From Candidatus Peribacteraceae bacterium (GTDB lineage Bacteria; Patescibacteriota; Gracilibacteria; Peribacterales; Peribacteraceae), in the NCBI GenBank assembly GCA_035547395.1, contig DASZVA010000010.1, positions 8,178-72,177 on the forward strand: a DNA stretch of 64,000 nt. The letters are read 5' to 3'. The notes below the pieces were generated by a model. It saw nothing but the letters and a program-made list of their open reading frames with translations, ran no database searches and was not told where the DNA came from. Of this stretch, positions 49,975 to 60,229 are shown piece after piece. Positions within the stretch are counted from its first letter, which is position 1; each line of letters begins with the position of its first letter. The translations under genes were made by a program, and so were the position numbers.

Positions 49975-50043
49975 GTAAACTATACTATACGTTGTCTTTT
50001 GGGCTTAGAAAAGGGGAATTTTTGGGAGCTAGTAATACAGTTC

Positions 50044-50679
50044 TTATTGATTTGTTGGCTTAATATTTAATAAAGAAATTTCCAAATTTCTTTCTCCAGT
50101 TGCTGTTTCATCTCCACTCATATGAATGTCATATATTTTATCGTCATCACCTATGGCGAAATAGTTAGTATTTGAACAATTCGGGCCATATTTGATTACA
50201 CGGATATTATTCTTAGTCACATCGAATTGAGTTGTATATCCCTCATTCCAATTGCCGTTAAAAGCATCTGCTCCTGTGTTAAAGTTCGGACCTTTAATAC
50301 AAACATTTTTTAATAAATCATCTAAAGAATGAAAATTTTTGTTTAAACATATTAAGAATGAAAAATATGAATTTCTTTGAGAAGAAGTAGCATTTGAAAA
50401 TTCAGAAGGTGAAAAAGTGGAAATGATTGAACAAGATCCATTACTAGAGGCAGTTATCTGAGCAGTTGATGGCAATGCAATGCTAAAAGATGTGTTAGGC
50501 ACTTGCTGATATATCCAGTCAGTCGACACTAAAGACAATTCGGCCAATTTAGAAGCAGTGCTGCTTTGTGAACTTGCTCCATTTACACCTTCTGAGCCTA
50601 TATTAAGATTCTTTGCATTATTACATGCACAGAGTAATAATGTCAGGAGTGCAGCCGCTAAACACCTACTTTTTTTCAT
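50044..50679 (-). CDS. Lipoprotein (candidate immunity/partner protein)
   Basis: Lipobox LCAC; AT-rich; starts 2 nt after the stop of the giant gene. Confidence 0.75.
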   Translation of the reverse strand: MKKSRCLAAALLTLLLCACNNAKNLNIGSEGVNGASSQSSTASKLAELSLVSTDWIYQQVPNTSFSIALPSTAQITASSNGSCSIISTFSPSEFSNATSSQRNSYFSFLICLNKNFHSLDDLLKNVCIKGPNFNTGADAFNGNWNEGYTTQFDVTKNNIRVIKYGPNCSNTNYFAIGDDDKIYDIHMSGDETATGERNLEISLLNIKPTNQ

Positions 50680-50681
50680 GA

Positions 50682-53600
50682 TTAACTTTGTGGATTAATT
50701 CTGTAGATAGTAATAGAGTTAAGGATTTGTGCTAAATGATCAAATGTAAAATAATGCAATCTAACAGTATTGTCATCCATTCCACTAACTCTAAGTCCCC
50801 AGTTTGAGTCGTACACCCAAACTCCATTTGCATCTATTCTATCTATTATTGCTGTGTGTGGCGTTTCTTCGGCACCAAGAATTGCATCCATTTGAATAAC
50901 GTCCCCGCTCAATTTATTTTGGAAATAATTTTTAACATCCGCAGTAGATTTAGTTGAATTCACAAATTCTCCTAGTGAAGTTACGTCATTTGAATCGAAC
51001 CATTCGTCATAAACATATTGAATATTTCCGTTTGTATCCATGACATATTTATTTCCGGGAAGAGTAATTTTTCCATTAAATACATTTTCAATTATTGACT
51101 CTGCCCATTGTTTACAAGATTCACCTGATTTTTCAGTTGCCATAAACTCTGTAGGAGAGACTACCTGTAAAGTTGGAAGTATTGTATTGCGTAGATAAGT
51201 CAGTATTTCTTGATTAGGAATCGGCAATTGCTCCATGGCTCCATCGACAGGGACAGTGATTTCTGTAGATTTGTCTCCGACATGTGTCTGCAAACTTTGT
51301 GCATTTTGAGAATCTTCTTTTCCAAACCACGCCGCGATTTTTATTTGTATCGGGCCGTGTGAAAAAGGCATTTGATCATTAATATCTTTGATCGGAATGC
51401 GAATGAATAGCTGGTTATCGATTTCGCTTCCAACTGGAACATCCGAGTACTGTGATCCTTGATACATTATGTATGCGGAAGCATGACCGTACGTCCAATC
51501 AGCCGCAGCCATGTCGAATCGAACACGAATACAGTCTTTGCCATCGGGAGTCATGTCGTAAATATTCGTAACAAATATTTGTGGATCGCTGCCGGGCGCA
51601 TTACTTGCTGCGAATATTTCATTATAGCCCGCTTTCTGGCTAAACAATTCCATTAATTGGGAAGCACGTGTGGAGATTGTACTGTTTTCTACGACCTGCA
51701 TAATTTTGAACCATGGAATATCCGTAATATCGGCAACCTCTTTTGAGTAAGTAATTTGCTGTCCAAGATCCGATGTCCCGTTCAATTTCTGAAGCAATCC
51801 AAGGAAGATTTTGCCAACTATGGTATCCGATCGCACATCAAAATCAGGATGACTGCCAAATGGATCGAACCATTCCTGTACGTCTTTGAACTCATCTGCA
51901 ATCGTCATCGAAGGAGTGGAAGCAGTTATTCCGAAGCCATTAGCGTCTGCCTTTGGTACACCGAATGTGTCTGTTATGAGATTACCAATAGCAGTCTGAA
52001 GGGAGCTCAAACCTGTATTCGCATCAAATCCGGCATTTGTCAGCAATTCAGATTTTTGATTGATGCATCTCAGTATTGTATCTGCATCACTGTTATCCAA
52101 TTCTCCATTAGAAACCGCTGACGCGACACTTGTCCGGATATCATCCTGATGCGCCGTAACATAATCATCCACCGCCTGCTTTTGCGCGGTGTCATCTGCT
52201 AGCTGGTTCAATGCCTGTGTCTGCTGTACTGGATCTGTGACCGTGGCGGTTATTTGTGCGACGCCGATCGCGAGTTCCTGTTTGCGGGCATCGCGCAATG
52301 CGACGATGCGCGGGTCATTTGAATTATTGAGTGTATTGAGGATCTTCGTCGCGAGGCGAATCTGACTCGAATCCATATCAGACGGCGGGGGCGTGTAATT
52401 GTTTCCGCTCGCCACCACCCAATCTCCTTCCGCCGTCTGGCGCAGTCCCTTCTCCCTCAAAAAGTCGTCGTGTTCCCGTTGCGTGAGCACGTCCTGCTCA
52501 GTCTGGATAAGCTGCTGATATTCGTTGTTGTAGAGTCTCTTCGCCGCTTCCATGATCGCGCCGCAGGAAGGAAGCGATATGCCGAGGGAGGAGAGTCCGC
52601 CCAGCTTCATGTAGTCCGATTGATAGATGGCGAGATGGTTCACGTTATTCCAGCGGTCGAGGCATTGCTGAACGGCTTCGAACTGCTGTTGCTGATTGCC
52701 GCCGTGCAGAATCTGGATGATGCCGTTGATGGCCGTTTGCATCACATCGCTCATTGCTTTTTCGTACACGCCGAGGTCGTCCCGCATCGTGTTGACGTAA
52801 TCGTTCATGCCGTTGACGAACATGTCCTGCGCCTGCCCGCGGCTGTAGCTGTGGCCGATTTTGTCCCACATTGCATCGACGGACGCTTCAAAATTTTCCG
52901 GACGGTATTCCGGATGCACCTGCAGTATGCGATTCATGAGATCCTCGCCCCCGCCGATGAAGAAATTATAAGGAGCCGGCAAGGTGGCGGTGTCCCAGTA
53001 CAGACGCGTTTTTTCGATCTGATTGATTTGCACGTCGCCCATGTATGCGCTTGCCACGCTCAAGAAATTGTCGAAGGTCTGCGTGCCTTCGGCCGTGCTT
53101 TGATCGCCGGCATAGAGATTCGATGGATCACACGTAACGGTCTGACTCGATTGATCCCAATGAAACGTCAGCGTGTGGATAATCATGCCGCCCTGTGCGT
53201 TACAAAGCTGCAGTTGATAATCGCCGGTCGGCCTGTTCGCATCGACCGTAATGCGCATGAGCGAAAAGGTGCTGCCACCCGGGCAAGAGCTGAGTGCTGT
53301 GGACAGGAATCCTCCCATATTGGTTTGCACGTAAGCGTTGTCGTGCGGCGTTTGTATATCCAGGAGCATGTTGGGACCGGACGTTTTCACGATCTTCATG
53401 TCGGGTTGGATGGGATCCGTTTCGAGCATTCCTGTTTCCACGTAGTCAAAAGGCAATTGCTGCGTAGAAACGCCGCCATTGTTGTTGTCATAGTTGTAGT
53501 AAGCGTTCACGGATTTAAGTACCTTGCCGGTTGCTGCATCGATCATGTCGAATGTCACGGAACTGCTCCCTCTATTTGCTGCCATTTCCAGTGAAAACGA

Positions 53601-55160
53601 ACAAGTCGTATCCAGACACCCTCCCGCTTGGTTCAATTCGTATACATGTGATTCTCGATCGCCACTGTATCCATAGATGACATTCATGCGGATCAGCGTG
53701 TCGTCGACGGGAGTTGCAAATCGCACATTGAAAATCGTACTTCTGCCGTTGGGCGTAGTATCGATGTACATTTTTGGGTAGAGCGTTTCAGCCTGTTCGC
53801 TTAGTGTCTGCGACACGGTCGTTGCTAGATCACTGGCGAGAGAGGCTGCATTCTGCACATTGTCCTGTGCTGTCAGCTTCTGCACTATTGTCGCTTTCTG
53901 CAGTTCATTCTGTCTCAGCTGCGCTACGGACAGCGTATAGATGGTCTCATCAAGATCCTCTTGTGTATCCGCCTGTGTCTTCAGGAGAGCATCCACTGCT
54001 TTCTGTTTCGCTGCATAGTCGTTGTGTGCGGCGCCGTCAGCATTCTTTGCGGCAGCCTGCGTCGCCTGATCCTTCTCCAGGATATCATCGTCCTTCTTTT
54101 GTTCATCCTGCACTTGTTGCAATGCTTGTTTCGCTTGTGCATCTGCGCGCTCCAGAGCGGGCCTGCTGTACCAGTCTTTGCAATACTGCTGAAAAGCCTG
54201 CGTGTACAAACTCTCCAGTTGGTACATATGATTCAGCGTGTCGCGATAGTCCTGGCTGTTGCGTGGCGTTCTCCATAAATGCATCCACTCTCCGTACAGT
54301 TTCTCGTAAATATTCTGTAAATTGCTACGGTCTGCAACCAGTTGTTCAGGAAGTGAGGTTAGTGCTTTGTCGGCTGTAAGAAGAGCATCCTTTGCCTGCG
54401 CCACGCGTGCCGCGACAGCGTCAGAGGCGGCTTGATCATCCGACATGGCATTGCTTGCCATGTTCAGCGCATCATCCGCTGCTTTCATGTGATCTGATGC
54501 AGTCTGGAGCGCCGCCTGCGCTGCAACGATCTTCGGACCGAGATCGTCGAGTATCTGCTGATCGCTTCCTTGTACATCCGCCAGATTGTGCACCAACGTC
54601 GTTACCTGATCTTCCGTCATGCCCGCGATCTGCTGACTGGTATAGGCGGGTAAGAGAGTGTGCGCGGCATCTCCTGATCCATCCATCACAGCGCGCACTT
54701 CCAGCGATTGCATACCGAGGTGTGTATACGTATTCGCGCGGCGTCTTCGTACCGGCTCCCAGCCCAGCATGGTTTTCATCCGCTGCATAAATGTCGTCGT
54801 GTTTTCCCGGACTCGTTTTTCCGGTCCGGTCTTTCTGGGGGGATCGATCGGGTCGGATGTCCGCACCCGATCCATCTGCACGGTCATTTTCTCTTCCAGT
54901 TGTCTTTTCATTTCATTGCTCAGAGAGGCACTCGCTGCAATGGAGCGGACGATCTCGCGCATCTGTTCGTTTTTCATGCCTCTATGCACACATTGCTCCA
55001 CCCAGCGTTCCCATTCCCGATCATCCGCGAATTGCAAAAATGCCGCATCCATCAAGGACGGCTGGTTCGCCGGACCCGTGTTGATGCTGAGTGCGTCCGC
55101 GGGGACGACGGCGTCGGAAACGGGGATAGAGAGACTGTCGGTCGGTTTGTGCGGAGCCAT
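50682..55160 (-). CDS. 1492-aa protein: coiled-coil N-half, C-terminal CHAP-like amidase/peptidase
   Basis: Long uninterrupted ORF; C-terminal GESCKQWA...GDVIQ...PHTAII...VYDSNW; Ala/Gln coiled coil at about aa 200-440. Confidence 0.8.
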   Translation of the reverse strand: MAPHKPTDSLSIPVSDAVVPADALSINTGPANQPSLMDAAFLQFADDREWERWVEQCVHRGMKNEQMREIVRSIAASASLSNEMKRQLEEKMTVQMDRVRTSDPIDPPRKTGPEKRVRENTTTFMQRMKTMLGWEPVRRRRANTYTHLGMQSLEVRAVMDGSGDAAHTLLPAYTSQQIAGMTEDQVTTLVHNLADVQGSDQQILDDLGPKIVAAQAALQTASDHMKAADDALNMASNAMSDDQAASDAVAARVAQAKDALLTADKALTSLPEQLVADRSNLQNIYEKLYGEWMHLWRTPRNSQDYRDTLNHMYQLESLYTQAFQQYCKDWYSRPALERADAQAKQALQQVQDEQKKDDDILEKDQATQAAAKNADGAAHNDYAAKQKAVDALLKTQADTQEDLDETIYTLSVAQLRQNELQKATIVQKLTAQDNVQNAASLASDLATTVSQTLSEQAETLYPKMYIDTTPNGRSTIFNVRFATPVDDTLIRMNVIYGYSGDRESHVYELNQAGGCLDTTCSFSLEMAANRGSSSVTFDMIDAATGKVLKSVNAYYNYDNNNGGVSTQQLPFDYVETGMLETDPIQPDMKIVKTSGPNMLLDIQTPHDNAYVQTNMGGFLSTALSSCPGGSTFSLMRITVDANRPTGDYQLQLCNAQGGMIIHTLTFHWDQSSQTVTCDPSNLYAGDQSTAEGTQTFDNFLSVASAYMGDVQINQIEKTRLYWDTATLPAPYNFFIGGGEDLMNRILQVHPEYRPENFEASVDAMWDKIGHSYSRGQAQDMFVNGMNDYVNTMRDDLGVYEKAMSDVMQTAINGIIQILHGGNQQQQFEAVQQCLDRWNNVNHLAIYQSDYMKLGGLSSLGISLPSCGAIMEAAKRLYNNEYQQLIQTEQDVLTQREHDDFLREKGLRQTAEGDWVVASGNNYTPPPSDMDSSQIRLATKILNTLNNSNDPRIVALRDARKQELAIGVAQITATVTDPVQQTQALNQLADDTAQKQAVDDYVTAHQDDIRTSVASAVSNGELDNSDADTILRCINQKSELLTNAGFDANTGLSSLQTAIGNLITDTFGVPKADANGFGITASTPSMTIADEFKDVQEWFDPFGSHPDFDVRSDTIVGKIFLGLLQKLNGTSDLGQQITYSKEVADITDIPWFKIMQVVENSTISTRASQLMELFSQKAGYNEIFAASNAPGSDPQIFVTNIYDMTPDGKDCIRVRFDMAAADWTYGHASAYIMYQGSQYSDVPVGSEIDNQLFIRIPIKDINDQMPFSHGPIQIKIAAWFGKEDSQNAQSLQTHVGDKSTEITVPVDGAMEQLPIPNQEILTYLRNTILPTLQVVSPTEFMATEKSGESCKQWAESIIENVFNGKITLPGNKYVMDTNGNIQYVYDEWFDSNDVTSLGEFVNSTKSTADVKNYFQNKLSGDVIQMDAILGAEETPHTAIIDRIDANGVWVYDSNWGLRVSGMDDNTVRLHYFTFDHLAQILNSITIYRINPQS

Positions 55161-55793: not shown

Positions 55794-57545
55794 ATGACCA
55801 ACGCAGAAATCGCCGACGTCTTTGAGCAAATTGCAAAGGTGCTCGATCTGCAGGGTGAGAATCCGTTCCGCATCCGCGCGTACGATCGTGCCGCGCAGAC
55901 GATCACGGCACTCAGTGAAGAACTCAAAAATATCTACGCACGCGGCGGACACGATGCGCTGCTGGAGATCCCCGGGATCGGTCAGGATCTCTCGGACAAG
56001 ATTGTCGAACTCCTGAAGACGGGGAAATTGAAATACCTCGCGGAGGTGCAGAAGAAACTCCCCAAAGGACTCTTCGACATCATGGAAGTGCCGGGCATGG
56101 GTCCCAAGAAGACGAAGTTTCTGTGGGAGACGTTCAAGGTGAAGGATTTGAAGGACCTGGAAGCACTCGCAAAATCAGACAAACTCATCGGCCGCAAGGG
56201 CTGGGGGCCGAAATCGATCGAAAATATTCTGACCGGCATCGAGGCGAAGAAAACCCACGGCTCGCGCGTGGCTCTCCCGATCGCGTTTGTCATCGCGGAA
56301 CAGATTGCAAACGAACTGCGCGCGACGAAGCTCTGCACCAAAGTGGAAGTCGCCGGCAGCGTGCGGCGCAGAAAGGAAACCATCGGCGACATCGACATCC
56401 TCGTTGCGAGCAAAAAACCGACGCAGGTGATGGACGTGTTCTGCAATTACGACGACGTGGAAGCGGTGGTCGCGAAGGGGCCGACCAAATCGAGCGTGCG
56501 GCTCAAGAGCGGACTCAATGCCGATCTGCGCGTGGTGGATGAGAACGTGTTCGGCGCGGCATGGCATTACTTCACCGGCAGTAAGGATCACAATGTGCAC
56601 GTGCGCAGGATCGGCTTGGAAAAGGGATTCACGATTTCGGAATATGGCGTCTACAAAGGAACGGCCAAGGAGAAAGGAAAATTGCTCGCGTCGAAAACGG
56701 AGGAGGACGTCTACAAGGCGGTGGGACTTCCTTATATAGAGCCGGAGCTTCGGGAGGATCGCGGCGAGATCGAGGCTGCGTACAAGGGAAAACTTCCGCA
56801 TCTCATCGAACTCACGGACATCAAAGGCGATCTGCATCTGCACAGCAATTTCAGTGATGGATCCGCGACGATGATCGACATGGCCCGGGCCGCCAAGGAA
56901 CTGGGGCATCAGTACATCGCGATCACCGATCACGGATCGCCGATGGGCATGGTGTATGGCATCAAGGAAAAAAATATTAAAGAGTATCTGAAAAAAATTA
57001 ATGAAGCGCGCAAGGCTGTCTCCGGCATTCATATTCTCGCCGGCACGGAAGTCGACATTCTGGAAGACGGCAGTTTGTATCTGCCGGACAAGATCCTCAA
57101 GCAGCTCGACTGGGTGGTGGCGTCGGTCCATGGAAATTTCAAGATGCCGCCTGCCGCGATGACCAAAAGAATTCTGAAGGCGATCGAGAATCCCTACGTC
57201 GACATCATCGCACACCCGACGTCGCGATTACTCCTCAAACGCGAGCCGATCGAATACGACATGGACGCGGTGATGAAAGCGGCAGCGAAGAGGGGAGTCT
57301 TGATGGAGCTCAATGCATCGATCTATCGATTGGATCTCAACGACATTCACTGCAAACGTGCGAAGGAACTCGGCGTGATGCTGAGTATCGATTCCGACGC
57401 GCATCACTTCCGCGAGTACGACTACCGCTTCGGCATCACGCAGGCGCGAAGAGGCTGGATCGAGAAAAAAGACGTCCTCAACACGAAAACGTGGAAGGAA
57501 CTCGAAGTGTTTTTGAAGAAGAGGAAGAAGGGATTCAACGGGTGA
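55794..57545 (+). CDS. polX: DNA polymerase X with PHP 3'-5' exonuclease
   Basis: NPFR.RAY, AGS.RR..ETIGDIDIL, FTGSK.HN, PHP motifs DLH.HS, TDH, AHP, DSDAH. Confidence 0.96.
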   Translation: MTNAEIADVFEQIAKVLDLQGENPFRIRAYDRAAQTITALSEELKNIYARGGHDALLEIPGIGQDLSDKIVELLKTGKLKYLAEVQKKLPKGLFDIMEVPGMGPKKTKFLWETFKVKDLKDLEALAKSDKLIGRKGWGPKSIENILTGIEAKKTHGSRVALPIAFVIAEQIANELRATKLCTKVEVAGSVRRRKETIGDIDILVASKKPTQVMDVFCNYDDVEAVVAKGPTKSSVRLKSGLNADLRVVDENVFGAAWHYFTGSKDHNVHVRRIGLEKGFTISEYGVYKGTAKEKGKLLASKTEEDVYKAVGLPYIEPELREDRGEIEAAYKGKLPHLIELTDIKGDLHLHSNFSDGSATMIDMARAAKELGHQYIAITDHGSPMGMVYGIKEKNIKEYLKKINEARKAVSGIHILAGTEVDILEDGSLYLPDKILKQLDWVVASVHGNFKMPPAAMTKRILKAIENPYVDIIAHPTSRLLLKREPIEYDMDAVMKAAAKRGVLMELNASIYRLDLNDIHCKRAKELGVMLSIDSDAHHFREYDYRFGITQARRGWIEKKDVLNTKTWKELEVFLKKRKKGFNG

Positions 57546-57551
57546 TAGGAA

Positions 57552-57575
57552 AAAGCGGACCCGGAAGTCCGCTTT
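57552..57575. terminator. Bidirectional terminator
   Basis: AAAGCGGAC-ccggaa-GTCCGCTTT between convergent genes. Confidence 0.7.
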
Positions 57576-57585
57576 ATCCGCATTC

Positions 57586-58395
57586 TTAAATCCGCCCCTT
57601 TCTTTTGCCCGACCCGCCGAAGTGGATACCTTGCGACACGATATTTTGAAGCAGCGGGCGGATTTGTTCATGAATGTTCACGATACTGCTGTCTTCCCAC
57701 ACGTCCTCTTCAAGCGCGTTGTAGAGAGGGGCGGAATTGATGACGTTTTCATATGCGTGATCGCTGCCATAAGCAAATGCACGCGAGAAGGTACGAATGA
57801 GTAGTTGATCGACTTCAGCTTCATAACCTTCCCGTACGCCTGAGAGAAACTCGTCCTGCTCTTTCGTGCGGGTCGCTTCGAAGACGCCGATCAATTCCCG
57901 GCCGCGCGCCTGGTGTAGTTCATCGAGACCATGGCGGAACTGGCTGCCTTCTTCATCCGCAAGACGAATCTTTGCGAGAAAGAATTGGAGTGGAGCATCT
58001 CTTTTCTTTCTCTTTGCGATGTGAAACAAATATTTGGAATGCTCCAACTGTCCTGTCCATTCTTTGGGCTTTGCATCCGGATCCGTGACTCCATGGGTCT
58101 CTTTGGTTCCCGCAGCAATGGCAAGACGGTCTGACAGATCGCGGGTGATTTTCACAATCTCCGATCTGCGTTCCTTCGTCGCCTCATTAATGTGATAATC
58201 AATCCAGGATAATTTGGAGAGTTTCTGCTCCAGGAGGAAATCGAATGTATCCAGATACTCGATCAGCTGCGTGCGTGTTTTTTGCTGGATGGCCTCGAGG
58301 ACGGTTGCGTGAAGAAAGGCTATGGTTTCGCACTCCAGAGTATCGAACTGATCGAGGGGAATCGACGAGCCGTAGATGGTGCTGTATGCGTTCAT
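57586..58395 (-). CDS. Hypothetical soluble protein downstream of tandem SAM-I riboswitches
   Basis: 269-aa ORF with no recognisable family, no internal Met and one Cys. Confidence 0.75.
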   Translation of the reverse strand: MNAYSTIYGSSIPLDQFDTLECETIAFLHATVLEAIQQKTRTQLIEYLDTFDFLLEQKLSKLSWIDYHINEATKERRSEIVKITRDLSDRLAIAAGTKETHGVTDPDAKPKEWTGQLEHSKYLFHIAKRKKRDAPLQFFLAKIRLADEEGSQFRHGLDELHQARGRELIGVFEATRTKEQDEFLSGVREGYEAEVDQLLIRTFSRAFAYGSDHAYENVINSAPLYNALEEDVWEDSSIVNIHEQIRPLLQNIVSQGIHFGGSGKRKGRI

Positions 58396-58447
58396 GGGAT
58401 AGGGGGAATGAAAATAAATTCCTCCTATCGGGCGAACATCATGTGAT

Positions 58448-58556
58448 GTATCTGTCCCGATGAGGGCATGGAAGGGGCACTGATCGCCGCGTTGATGGTC
58501 GCGGGAAGTTGCCGGATGAGTCGTCGAGCCATGTCTCTCGTCATCACTCTTGATAC
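58448..58556 (-). ncRNA. SAM-I riboswitch aptamer 2 (gene-proximal, probably translational)
   Basis: Minus strand: GTATC-AAGAG, GATGA-CGAGAGACATGGCTCGACGAC-TCATC, CGGCAAC...AGTGCC, CCTTCC, P4 CCC-TCATC-GGG, AGATAC. Matches the SAM-I consensus. Confidence 0.85.
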
Positions 58557-58586
58557 GATGCTTGAAAGAACGAAGGAGCCGGCGGT

Positions 58587-58607
58587 TTACATGGCGGTCA
58601 TGAGCAT
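58587..58607 (-). CDS. Met-rich leader peptide MLMTAM (uORF)
   Basis: ATG CTC ATG ACC GCC ATG TAA, preceded by the genome's typical pyrimidine-rich initiation region. Confidence 0.65.
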   Translation of the reverse strand: MLMTAM

Positions 58608-58638
58608 GGCGGTGTGGGGAAGGAAATGAAGCGGAATC

Positions 58639-58663
58639 AAAAACGCTCTCCCGGGGAAGAGCG
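58639..58663 (-). terminator. Riboswitch-controlled intrinsic terminator
   Basis: CGCTCTTCCCCGGGAGAGCG-TTTTT; the 5' arm TCTTCCCC is complementary to GGGGAAGA at the aptamer 3' end (antiterminator). Confidence 0.85.
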
Positions 58664-58674
58664 ACTGGTTGCTT

Positions 58675-58775
58675 CTATCTTCCCCCTTTCGGGGCTGGAG
58701 TTCCCACCGTTTCCCTCTCGGGATGGTTGGGGGACGTCTGTAGCGGGCCAGTTCCCTCGACGTCTCTCGTGATAG
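58675..58775 (-). ncRNA. SAM-I riboswitch aptamer 1 (transcriptional)
   Basis: Minus strand: CTATC-ACGAG, GACGTC-GAGGGAACTGGCCC-GACGTC, CCCAACC...GGTGGG, AACTCC, CCCC-GAAA-GGGG, AAGATAG. Confidence 0.92.
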
Positions 58776-58829
58776 CGATGATGTGACATCATGAAAGCAT
58801 GATTTTTCGCATAAATCAAGCAAAATCGT

Positions 58830-58976
58830 TCATTCCTTGCCTCCATCGCAGCACGTCTCGCACAGAACTCCGCATTGCGAACAATGCTTCTTGAGCCTGC
58901 GTTCGATGAGCGCTGCGCCGCAGACCGGACATCGGTCATCGCAAGCATTTTCTTTTATGGTCGCAGGTTCCACCAT
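58830..58976 (-). CDS. Small Cys-rich zinc-finger microprotein (48 aa)
   Basis: MVEPATIKENACDDRCPVCGAALIERRLKKHCSQCGVLCETCCDGGKE; CPxCG and CxxCG knuckles. Confidence 0.65.
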   Translation of the reverse strand: MVEPATIKENACDDRCPVCGAALIERRLKKHCSQCGVLCETCCDGGKE

Positions 58977-59161
58977 GTGCCGATGAGCGAAAGTCCCATC
59001 ACGATGAAGAAGATCGCGACGAGGTAGGCGAGCAGATCCGGCGCGATCAGGATCGCGATGCCGAAGGCGAGGGCGAGAATGCCGCCTGACAAAAACGACG
59101 TGCCGATGATGCGCGAGCCGGTGGTGGACAGTCCCTGGGGTCTGCGGAAGAAGAAGAACAT
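58955..59161 (-). CDS. Small 2-TM membrane protein
   Basis: GI.ILI.P.LLAY.VA..F pattern; TATACT 6 nt before the ATG. Confidence 0.7.
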   Translation of the reverse strand: MFFFFRRPQGLSTTGSRIIGTSFLSGGILALAFGIAILIAPDLLAYLVAIFFIVMGLSLIGTWWNLRP

Positions 59162-59236
59162 GAAAAAAGTATACCATGCGCGAAATGCGTGCAGCGATCT
59201 TGCGTCTGCCCCTAAGCAGAACATACTCTTGACCGG

Positions 59237-60229
59237 ATGCCGACCCTCGACGATCTTCATGAGACCTATGAAGAACTTGCACAGTCACATGTGGACGGCG
59301 TCGCGGGCGTGCGGCTGCTTGGAGACGGCAATGGAAAGACGGTGATCGTCAGCTGCATGACACACGGCAACGAACCCTGCGGCCTCGCGTTCATACGATA
59401 CCTCTTGCTTCATCCGGACGTCGCCGCGCGCATTCGCGGCACATTGATCGTGAGCATCAATAATCTCGAAGGAGCCAGGCGATTTTTTGCGGCCGCCACG
59501 CCCGAAGAACGCAAAAAGGCGCGCGTGCTGGATGCGAACATGAATCGTCTGCCGACGGATGCGCCAAAGAGCGCGTCGACTGCATACGAACTGCAGCGAT
59601 TTGCGCAGCTGTATCCCATCTTTCAACGGGCGGAAGCGGGGCTCGATCTGCACAGCTTTCCCGCGGACGGTCCGCCGATGATCATCGACGTGAAAGGGGA
59701 CGCGTCCGCGATTGAGCGCGTCTCGGATCCGCTGCCGGTCACCGTCTGGGTGAAGGGGATTACGCAGCATCAGGAGGGACATCCGATCGGATGGTTCTAT
59801 GGAGGAGCGGGGAGCGACGTTCCCGTTTTCGAAGTCGAGTGCGGCGTGCATCTGGACCCCGCGGCGTTCGACACGGCGGTGCGTTCAGGGCTGGCATATC
59901 TGGTCGGTCTCGGGATGCTCGACCTGCCGCACGCGACGGAACTCAGGATGCAGGATGTGTTTCATGTGCAAAAGAGTATTCATTTTCCGAATCTCAGTTA
60001 TGAGCTGCTGCGCCTCTATGACAACTTCGACGTGATAGCGGAAGGGGAAATCATCGCTACGGGCGACGACGGCGACATCGTCGCGGACCGCGAATACCGG
60101 GCTCTGTTTGGCAGGCGAACAGTGCGTTTTACACAACAGGAGGAGATCGCGTTTGAAATAACCTGGCTCACTGATCCGCCGGTACATCGCCAGAAGAAGC
60201 AGATCGTGTTCGATGCGCTTGATGTGTGA
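59237..60229 (+). CDS. Succinylglutamate desuccinylase/aspartoacylase (M14-like) family protein
   Basis: HGNE..G, N.NR, LDLHS, E.G.H. Confidence 0.88.
   Translation: MPTLDDLHETYEELAQSHVDGVAGVRLLGDGNGKTVIVSCMTHGNEPCGLAFIRYLLLHPDVAARIRGTLIVSINNLEGARRFFAAATPEERKKARVLDANMNRLPTDAPKSASTAYELQRFAQLYPIFQRAEAGLDLHSFPADGPPMIIDVKGDASAIERVSDPLPVTVWVKGITQHQEGHPIGWFYGGAGSDVPVFEVECGVHLDPAAFDTAVRSGLAYLVGLGMLDLPHATELRMQDVFHVQKSIHFPNLSYELLRLYDNFDVIAEGEIIATGDDGDIVADREYRALFGRRTVRFTQQEEIAFEITWLTDPPVHRQKKQIVFDALDV

Follow-up and report, generated by a model that had tools for sequence, protein, structure and literature searches.

Two SAM-I riboswitch aptamers precede an orphan gene at an apparent former metK locus in a Candidatus Peribacteraceae genome without a recognisable S-adenosylmethionine synthetase

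We analysed a stretch of 64,000 nucleotides (the window) from a Candidatus Peribacteraceae bacterium (assembly GCA_035547395.1, contig DASZVA010000010.1, positions 8,178 to 72,177 of the forward strand), in which an orphan gene lies behind a leader with two aptamers of the SAM-I class of S-adenosylmethionine (SAM) riboswitches. The source genome of the window, hereafter G000, comprises 1.29 Mb in 17 contigs and is 92% complete. Three DNA sequencing runs, all from one study, contain the stretch or a part of it, and two of them yielded only short contig pieces at low depth; no RNA run containing it was listed. The features of the locus are summarized in Table 1. The polX gene (HHH, polymerase beta, and PHP domains) lies on the plus strand and converges on the orphan gene, which is therefore monocistronic. 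The hairpin between the two genes belongs to a region (57540-57595, minus strand, 56 nt) that folds at -20.9 kcal/mol; it was absent from the output of the consensus terminator scan, and it is probably a terminator that works in both directions. The monocistronic arrangement with a terminator, as given in a preliminary description made from the letters of the window, was thus confirmed.

Table 1. Features of the orphan gene and its leader; positions are those of the window.
Feature	Positions	Strand	Basis and details
Orphan coding sequence (family A; protein P0001)	57586-58395	-	Open reading frame list; 269 residues, ATG start, 30.8 kDa, pI 5.6
Probable terminator (hairpin and U run) just past the orphan stop codon, between the orphan gene and convergent polX	57552-57575	-	Sequence; fold
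SAM-I aptamer 1, of the type that precedes metK in Peribacteria	58672-58778	-	RF00162, 42.9 bits, E 2.2e-8, model positions 1-108
SAM-I aptamer 2	58445-58559	-	RF00162, 35.3 bits, E 3.6e-6, model positions 1-108
Intrinsic terminator of aptamer 1	58639-58663	-	Terminator scan; stem 58663-58644
C/U-rich stretch past the terminator of aptamer 1	58611-58630	-	Leader alignment; also in the metK leader of L040 and in G001 and G010
Six-codon frame Met-Leu-Met-Thr-Ala-Met-stop	58587-58607	-	Near the start of the open reading frame of the metK-type leader in relatives
Conserved hairpin ending 2 nt before the ATG	58398-58429	-	Minimum-free-energy folds

At the Rfam gathering scores, only a tRNA was reported in the window and no SAM riboswitch class reached its threshold; classes other than SAM-I were searched in the window only, at this score. 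The gathering score of SAM-I (RF00162) is 44.4 bits, and the two aptamers were found in E-value mode. In the whole G000 genome, RF00162 matched only these two sites at E ≤ 1. These results agree with the preliminary description, which had named the orphan gene as the sole target of a double SAM switch: the two full-length, sub-threshold matches are the only ones in the genome. Across 61 genomes of relatives, 15 of the 28 SAM-I matches listed reach 44.4 bits, and several of the 17 metK-linked sites miss this score as well, so low scores are a trait of this lineage. The minimum-free-energy folds of both aptamers gave a four-way junction with full P1-P4 helices. Inspection by eye of the Rfam alignment showed that the partners of the P2-loop/J3-4 pseudoknot are complementary in both aptamers, with letters that differ between the two, and in the Rfam and lineage alignments the consensus letters of J1/2 and of the P3 internal loop are kept in both, again as judged by eye.

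Two structures that exclude each other can form after aptamer 1, as is usual for an expression platform. The terminator has an 8-bp stem with five G-C pairs, a 4-nt loop, and a U5 tail, and its 5′ arm can pair alternatively with 58678-58685 to form an antiterminator. Aptamer 1 together with the terminator folds at -54.3 kcal/mol, compared with -49.1 kcal/mol for the antiterminator alternative. Downstream of aptamer 2 there is a hairpin and no terminator. In this hairpin (58429-58398), a purine-rich 5′ arm with AGGAGG pairs with the pyrimidine-rich stretch ahead of the ATG; both arms also occur in G001, another genome of the genus, although the automatic alignment misplaces the 3′ arm there. 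We determined the composition upstream of the starts of 598 long open reading frames (ORFs) in G000. These regions are C/U-rich and G-poor (TTTCC, TTCCC, TCCCC), as at 58398-58410 and 58611-58630 (minus strand) in the window, and show no enrichment of Shine-Dalgarno sites (GGAGG occurs 5 times near starts versus 4 times further away), which suggests that translation initiation in G000 is independent of a Shine-Dalgarno site. For this reason, the hairpin is read as masking the translation start. It would then be the expression platform of aptamer 2, covering the initiation region, and aptamer 2 would act on translation.

The leader and the protein have changed at very different rates. The 420-nt leaders of G000 and G001 share 80% identity, and each aptamer contains long stretches without any change, whereas the orphan proteins are 25% identical over 256 residues (BLASTP); the neighbouring PolX proteins are 73% identical. 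The difference between leader and protein indicates selection on the SAM control. Aptamer 1 conforms to the consensus derived from 18 aptamers linked to metK in relatives. Aptamer 2 belongs to a different subtype and aligns with the aptamers in front of metA in G001 and G005, as well as with those in front of a second orphan family in G002 and G004. Six other genomes of the taxonomic family that lack metK (G006, G016, G018, G022, G023, and G034) gave no SAM-I match, so that the retention and duplication of the riboswitch at the present locus look selected. A DNA pattern for aptamer 2 had no match in metagenome contigs. A shorter pattern matched in 9 other genomes of the 200 from the taxonomic family, and these matches were taken as chance; 8 of the loci have no SAM-I match at E ≤ 1, the G028 locus being excluded.

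SAM-I also stands before other genes in the genus. SAM-I-controlled metA genes, encoding homoserine O-acyltransferase, lie at L034:1752-2747 (G001) and L025:1619-2632 (G005), with PF04204 scores of 386 and 364 bits, respectively. Methionine biosynthesis would thus be SAM-regulated in these two genomes although no route from methionine to SAM is known there. The second orphan family (about 220-275 residues) stands behind a single SAM-I aptamer in G004 (L029:1634-2458, plus strand) and G002 (L020) and was found in 20 of the 200 genomes of the taxonomic family, some of which have metK. Its members carry Gly-x-Gly-Ala-Gln...Val-Ile-Lys near the N-terminus and look kinase-like by eye, with no Pfam match. 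As a candidate relative of family A it was rejected, since hhalign gave a probability of 0.5% and the two are not detectably related.

Comparison with relatives indicates what stood at this place before. In the taxonomic family outside the genus, all 16 SAM-I sites examined precede metK, which was identified at these sites by its N-terminal sequence and by coincidence with PF02773 positions. The closest relatives of the window's PolX are four records labelled Candidatus Peribacteria (63-73% identity), one of which carries the same orthologue as G001. In L040, a Peribacteria genome with a PolX 68% identical, a SAM-I aptamer of 38.5 bits precedes a metK gene that converges on polX with two small ORFs between them. 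An alignment of the leaders of the window, G001, G010, and L040 (the last belonging to metK) shows collinearity that begins upstream of aptamer 1 and extends over the terminator and the C/U-rich stretch. Past this stretch, at about the ORF start of G010 and L040, the window has the six-codon frame (58607-58587) and G001 a frame of three codons. Since SAM-I and metK occupy the same polX-adjacent place behind a collinear leader in L040, the orphan gene occupies a former metK locus. The six-codon frame may be a remnant of the start of the displaced gene. The simplest reading of these sequence comparisons is that the orphan gene replaced metK behind the old riboswitch and that an aptamer of the second subtype was then inserted directly before the orphan gene. 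The family member of G010 is preceded by a metK-type aptamer (38.2 bits) at a distance of 435 nt. An ORF of 59 codons (L036:2336-2515, minus strand) starts in G010 where the ORF of a metK-type leader is expected, and its first codons also occur in the six-codon frame of the window; between this ORF and the family member lies a G+C-rich hairpin with a U-rich tail.

To describe the SAM metabolism of G000, we searched for the enzymes that make or recycle SAM and methionine. No match to bacterial MetK (PF02773) was found, and tblastn with the MetK protein of a relative gave none at the locus or elsewhere in the genome (best E 0.54). Archaeal MetK (PF01941), homoserine acyltransferase (metA), S-adenosylhomocysteine (SAH) hydrolase, methylthioadenosine/SAH nucleosidase, radical-SAM domains, and MetE were not found in G000 either. 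MetE was likewise not found in G001-G004, G005 being outside this search. PF02773 was present in 148 of 200 genomes of the taxonomic family; the five further members of the genus (G001-G005), one of them a complete single contig, all gave no match. On this evidence, no known enzyme seems available to the genus for making SAM. The SAM-dependent TrmD is present in G000 (191 bits), and its retention means that SAM is still needed and probably imported. EamA/DMT transporter domains gave 10 matches in at least 5 genes.

The orphan protein itself has no internal methionine and one cysteine by composition count. The highest Kyte-Doolittle mean over 19 residues is 0.84 and the grand average of hydropathy is -0.51, so that no membrane helix is predicted in this acidic (pI 5.6), hydrophilic protein. 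An export signal was not evident, no dedicated signal-peptide program having been applied. The preliminary description of a soluble protein without a membrane segment, internal methionine, or more than one cysteine is therefore borne out by composition and hydropathy. Its "mostly helical" was roughly right: an AlphaFold2 model built from 11 sequences has approximately 56% helix and 14% strand, as counted from its element list. This model reached a predicted local distance difference test (pLDDT) score of 87.4 and a predicted template modelling score of 0.76, compared with a pLDDT of 33.5 for the single-sequence model. The predicted layout starts with an N-terminal β-hairpin and a bundle of three helices (residues 19-95); a sheet of three strands together with one helix (117-173) comes next, and the helices of the C-terminal part are long.

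The family of the orphan protein is small. An exhaustive HMMER search of 1.84 billion cluster representatives gave 8 homologues (E 1.5e-27 to 6e-4, 25-34% identity), and 2 further homologues came from genomes, so that 11 members are available including P0001. A word-indexed protein search returned the query alone, and a profile search returned the query and P0008. The family profile matched 4 of the 200 genomes of the taxonomic family (G000, G001, G010, and G186), in all of which the reading frame is intact, and none of 400 other genomes sampled from the class. No fused forms were found among longer proteins, no related loci were found with P0001 in the genome contigs, and a small family alignment gave no relatives in metagenome and viral contigs. 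Family A has so far been seen only in Peribacteria-type genomes and metagenomes. The conserved parts are an N-terminal motif, Thr-Arg-Thr-Gln-Leu, Asp-Leu-Ser...Ile-Ala-Ala-Gly, and a Lys-Pro-Lys-Glu-Trp-Thr-Gly loop; Asp86 is invariant in the family alignment, and Lys111 and Asp147 are nearly so.

No known family was recognised in P0001 by Pfam or NCBIfam (0 families), and a profile search of the PDB gave nothing below E 0.07. At a profile threshold of E 0.01, no Pfam, NCBIfam, PHROG, or PADLOC family was shared among the 9 or 11 members compared, with single weak matches in at most one member each. These results agree with the earlier statement that motifs of MetK, MetE, ABC transporters, and methyltransferases are lacking, as no known methionine or SAM family was matched. 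With the whole model, Foldseek gave 0 matches at E ≤ 0.001 in PDB and BFVD. The best VIA-align result (Z 8.8) covered residues 15-96 and generic helical bundles, residues 117-174 matched small phage proteins and a ribosomal protein at a Z of about 5, and the ESM Atlas gave only generic helical-bundle look-alikes under useful thresholds. The structural comparison used the whole predicted model rather than separate domain models, and we do not claim a new fold for family A.

The preliminary description had suggested checking whether homologues also lack methionine, and they do not do so throughout. The internal methionines in the 11 members number 0, 2, 6, 2, 5, 0, 1, 7, 0, 6, and 2, those of the G000 and G001 orthologues both being 0, and the range of 0-7 indicates that the lack is not a family trait. 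In the long ORFs of G000, internal methionine amounts to 2.19%, and the binomial probability of none in 268 residues is 0.0027. Seven of 617 ORF proxies of at least 250 residues in G000 also have no internal methionine, so that the lack is uncommon and not unique; some of these proxies may not be genes. The family total of 31 compared with about 68 expected at 2.19% makes family A methionine-poor on average. Sulfur-sparing proteins are expressed under sulfur limitation, and the proteins of G000 and G001 and the low family total resemble them. They differ in that 4 of the 11 members have ordinary methionine contents (5-7), cysteine is not depleted in G001 (5, where members have 1-5), and the other SAM-I-controlled genes of the genus are not methionine-poor.

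Starting from what was observed, namely the aptamers, the terminator, the history of the locus, a genome apparently devoid of metK, and a leader that is conserved next to a rapidly changing protein, we lean on balance towards the interpretation that the orphan gene encodes a real cytoplasmic protein that is induced by SAM starvation and repressed by SAM at two levels. SAM would be the ligand of both aptamers. In aptamer 1, inherited from the ancestral metK leader, SAM binding would stop transcription at the intrinsic terminator. Aptamer 2, from the second SAM-I subtype circulating in the genus, would act through the hairpin that buries the pyrimidine-rich translation start, so that SAM would turn the gene off in both transcription and translation. 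As the genome has no recognisable SAM synthetase and SAM is needed, the protein would be made only when the pool of imported or salvaged SAM is low. We infer that it works in obtaining, salvaging, or sparing SAM or methionine.

Several observations weigh against this interpretation. Both aptamers score under the gathering score, and aptamer 2 of G001 has no Rfam match at E ≤ 1; it aligns with aptamer 2 of G000 and has an identical four-way junction fold. The folds show no route by which SAM on aptamer 2 toggles the hairpin. In G010, the 59-codon ORF and a terminator-like hairpin separate the aptamer from the family member. Family A is absent from G002-G005, which are congeneric and lack metK, and it is therefore not required for life without metK. 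G186 has metK, and its homologue has no SAM-I within 4.8 kb upstream. In favour of the interpretation, of the family-bearing genomes, the three without metK (G000, G001, and G010) all have the gene behind SAM-I and the one with metK (G186) does not, in a count that covers these four genomes and not the metagenomic homologues P0002-P0008. The association with metK loss is not statistically firm, because only four genomes are involved and two of them are congeneric. The very fast divergence of the protein would fit a non-metabolic function as well. The preliminary description had raised the question whether homologues also sit behind SAM-I, which holds for the tandem aptamers of G000 and G001 and for the single aptamer of G010 at a distance of 435 nt, and fails for G186. 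It had also proposed a factor for methionine or SAM acquisition, such as a non-canonical enzyme or a host-directed effector. The former metK locus, the metK-less genus, and the conserved leader speak for this part; the ordinary methionine content of some members, the G186 homologue without a switch, and the absence of the family from G003-G005 speak against it. The analysis gave no sign of an enzyme activity or of a role directed at the host.

The leading rival explanation is regulatory hitch-hiking. According to this explanation, a fast-evolving lineage-specific gene, for example one active in host interaction or defence or belonging to a selfish element, landed at the site of metK loss and inherited the riboswitch, and its function is unrelated to SAM. 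We regard this as possible and rather unlikely; the patchy distribution and very fast divergence of the family keep it a serious rival. The family is rare (4 of 200 genomes of the taxonomic family and 0 of 400 others of the class), the proteins of congeneric species share only 25% identity, the riboswitch-less homologue in G186 adjoins another orphan, and G003-G005 have neither metK nor family A. Hitch-hiking does not readily account for a leader that is 80% conserved over both aptamers while the protein drifts, nor for the addition of a second aptamer of a different subtype directly before the orphan gene. The lack of a SAM-I match in the six other metK-less genomes of the taxonomic family, against which its retention here looks selected, argues in the same direction. 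Moreover, PHROG matched 0 of 11 members, PADLOC matched 1 of 11 weakly, and no relatives were found in viral contigs.

A non-homologous replacement of MetK, by a new kind of enzyme that took over the site of metK and forms or salvages SAM, is improbable. It would account for a gene at the metK position behind a metK-type riboswitch in two genera, in both of which metK was not found, and for two species of the genus that keep SAM-I-controlled metA without a known route from methionine to SAM. The invariant or nearly invariant polar residues Asp86, Lys111, and Asp147 could form an active site. The replacement is weakened by G003-G005, which have neither metK nor family A, and by G186, which has both. 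Furthermore, the structural comparisons did not reveal an enzyme fold, nucleotide-binding or otherwise (generic helical bundles with Z ≤ 8.8 came out best), and the sequence diverges far faster than is usual for core enzymes. The broader proposal that the orphan protein supplies SAM by a route unrelated to MetK, as a new SAM-forming or SAM-salvaging enzyme, and that the SAM-I regulon of the genus (family A, the kinase-like orphan family, and metA) marks an undescribed pathway of SAM acquisition in the candidate phyla radiation (CPR), is a long shot to the same degree.

It is equally doubtful, in our judgement very much so, that both aptamers are SAM-I variants for some different ligand, with the gene belonging to another pathway. 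SAM-I variants with altered specificity exist: Salvail et al. 2023 (PMC10853860) describe spermidine-sensing ones, which lie before polyamine genes and are altered in J1/2 and in the internal loop of P3. Like these variants, the present aptamers are SAM-I-like, score low (both below the gathering score), and are linked to a gene outside the classical regulon. They differ from those described there (PMC10853860) in keeping the consensus letters of J1/2 and P3, as judged by eye, and in belonging to subtypes under whose control metK or metA is found as well. Scores of this height are usual in the lineage, in which 15 of the 28 matches of relatives pass, aptamer 1 fits the metK-linked consensus, the subtype of aptamer 2 also controls metA, the P2-loop/J3-4 pseudoknot is kept by compensated changes as judged by eye, and the orphan gene is not a polyamine gene. 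Finally, a chance or decaying frame in a dead metK locus is suggested by the absence of a known domain and the single-sequence pLDDT of 33.5 and is extremely unlikely, given full-length homologues of similar size with conserved motifs, a pLDDT of 87.4 with 11 sequences, and frames intact in G000, G001, G010, and G186.

The proposed SAM repression at two levels can be compared with known systems. The S-box leader of metK, found in the Peribacteria relatives and classically in Firmicutes, shares with the present leader aptamer 1, the terminator/antiterminator pair, the C/U-rich stretch collinear with L040, and the predicted OFF-switch logic. The differences are an orphan target that is no known methionine, cysteine, or SAM gene, an extra aptamer, and a genome in which metK was not found. 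Tandem SAM riboswitches are already known: 164 cases of two SAM-I copies in tandem are counted in the review of Sherlock et al. 2022 (PMC9481103), which also reports pairs of SAM-II and SAM-V that use two mechanisms. The present leader resembles the tandem riboswitches of that review in having two complete switches, the first with a terminator and the second apparently at the translation start. In comparison with those described there, both switches here are SAM-I, of two subtypes with separate histories, a pyrimidine-rich start rather than a Shine-Dalgarno site is masked, and the target is an orphan in an organism that is apparently unable to make SAM. Of more interest than an orphan gene behind a riboswitch as such is its place in the former metK locus of a lineage that apparently has no SAM synthetase. 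We found no published description of this arrangement, in a search that had supplements and subscription journals outside its coverage.

Obligate symbionts that are auxotrophic for SAM import it, an example being the reported SAM transporter of Chlamydia trachomatis (PMC3104491). G000 resembles such symbionts in that metK and SAH hydrolase were not found, SAM-dependent enzymes are kept, and several EamA/DMT-type transporter genes are present. To our knowledge, no SAM riboswitch is involved in SAM-importing symbionts. In the present lineage, by difference, the persisting SAM-I switches control soluble orphan proteins and not a transporter.

Time and again, orphan genes behind riboswitches have opened the way to new metabolism, since the identity of the ligand points to the pathway. 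In the present case, the ligand would be SAM, the organism is apparently auxotrophic for it, and the sole SAM-controlled gene belongs to an undescribed family without a recognised fold at the old site of metK. The locus therefore offers a concrete way to test how episymbionts of the CPR cope with the need for SAM from outside. It is also a clear case of a riboswitch that outlived its original gene and came to serve new targets. Even with a protein that turns out to have nothing to do with SAM, the locus would show how strongly an inherited regulatory element can be conserved.

Other genes near family A and near SAM-I sites were recorded. In G186, an orphan of 347 residues without a Pfam match (L037:39-1082, plus strand) lies directly upstream of the family member on the same strand with a gap of 25 nt, and they may belong to one operon. 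SAM-I sites in other families of the class stand before a protein of 415 residues that looks like SAH hydrolase by eye (G048, L011:1793-3040, oriented to the riboswitch) and before ORFs without an assigned family of 236 and 156 residues in G051 (L014) and G058 (L026), respectively. In the window, just upstream of the riboswitch leader, a short cysteine-rich frame on the minus strand (58830-58975) has two Cys-x-x-Cys pairs and is zinc-ribbon-like. It overlaps the end of the DUF3096 ORF (58955-59260) and may be the gene of a small protein on the strand shared with the orphan gene. Further along the window, an ORF of 1492 residues on the minus strand (50682-55160) has no Pfam match and may be foreign or encode a surface or host-interaction protein; the G+C content falls from approximately 0.52-0.55 to 0.32-0.38 toward its 3′ end and the next ORF (50000-51500).

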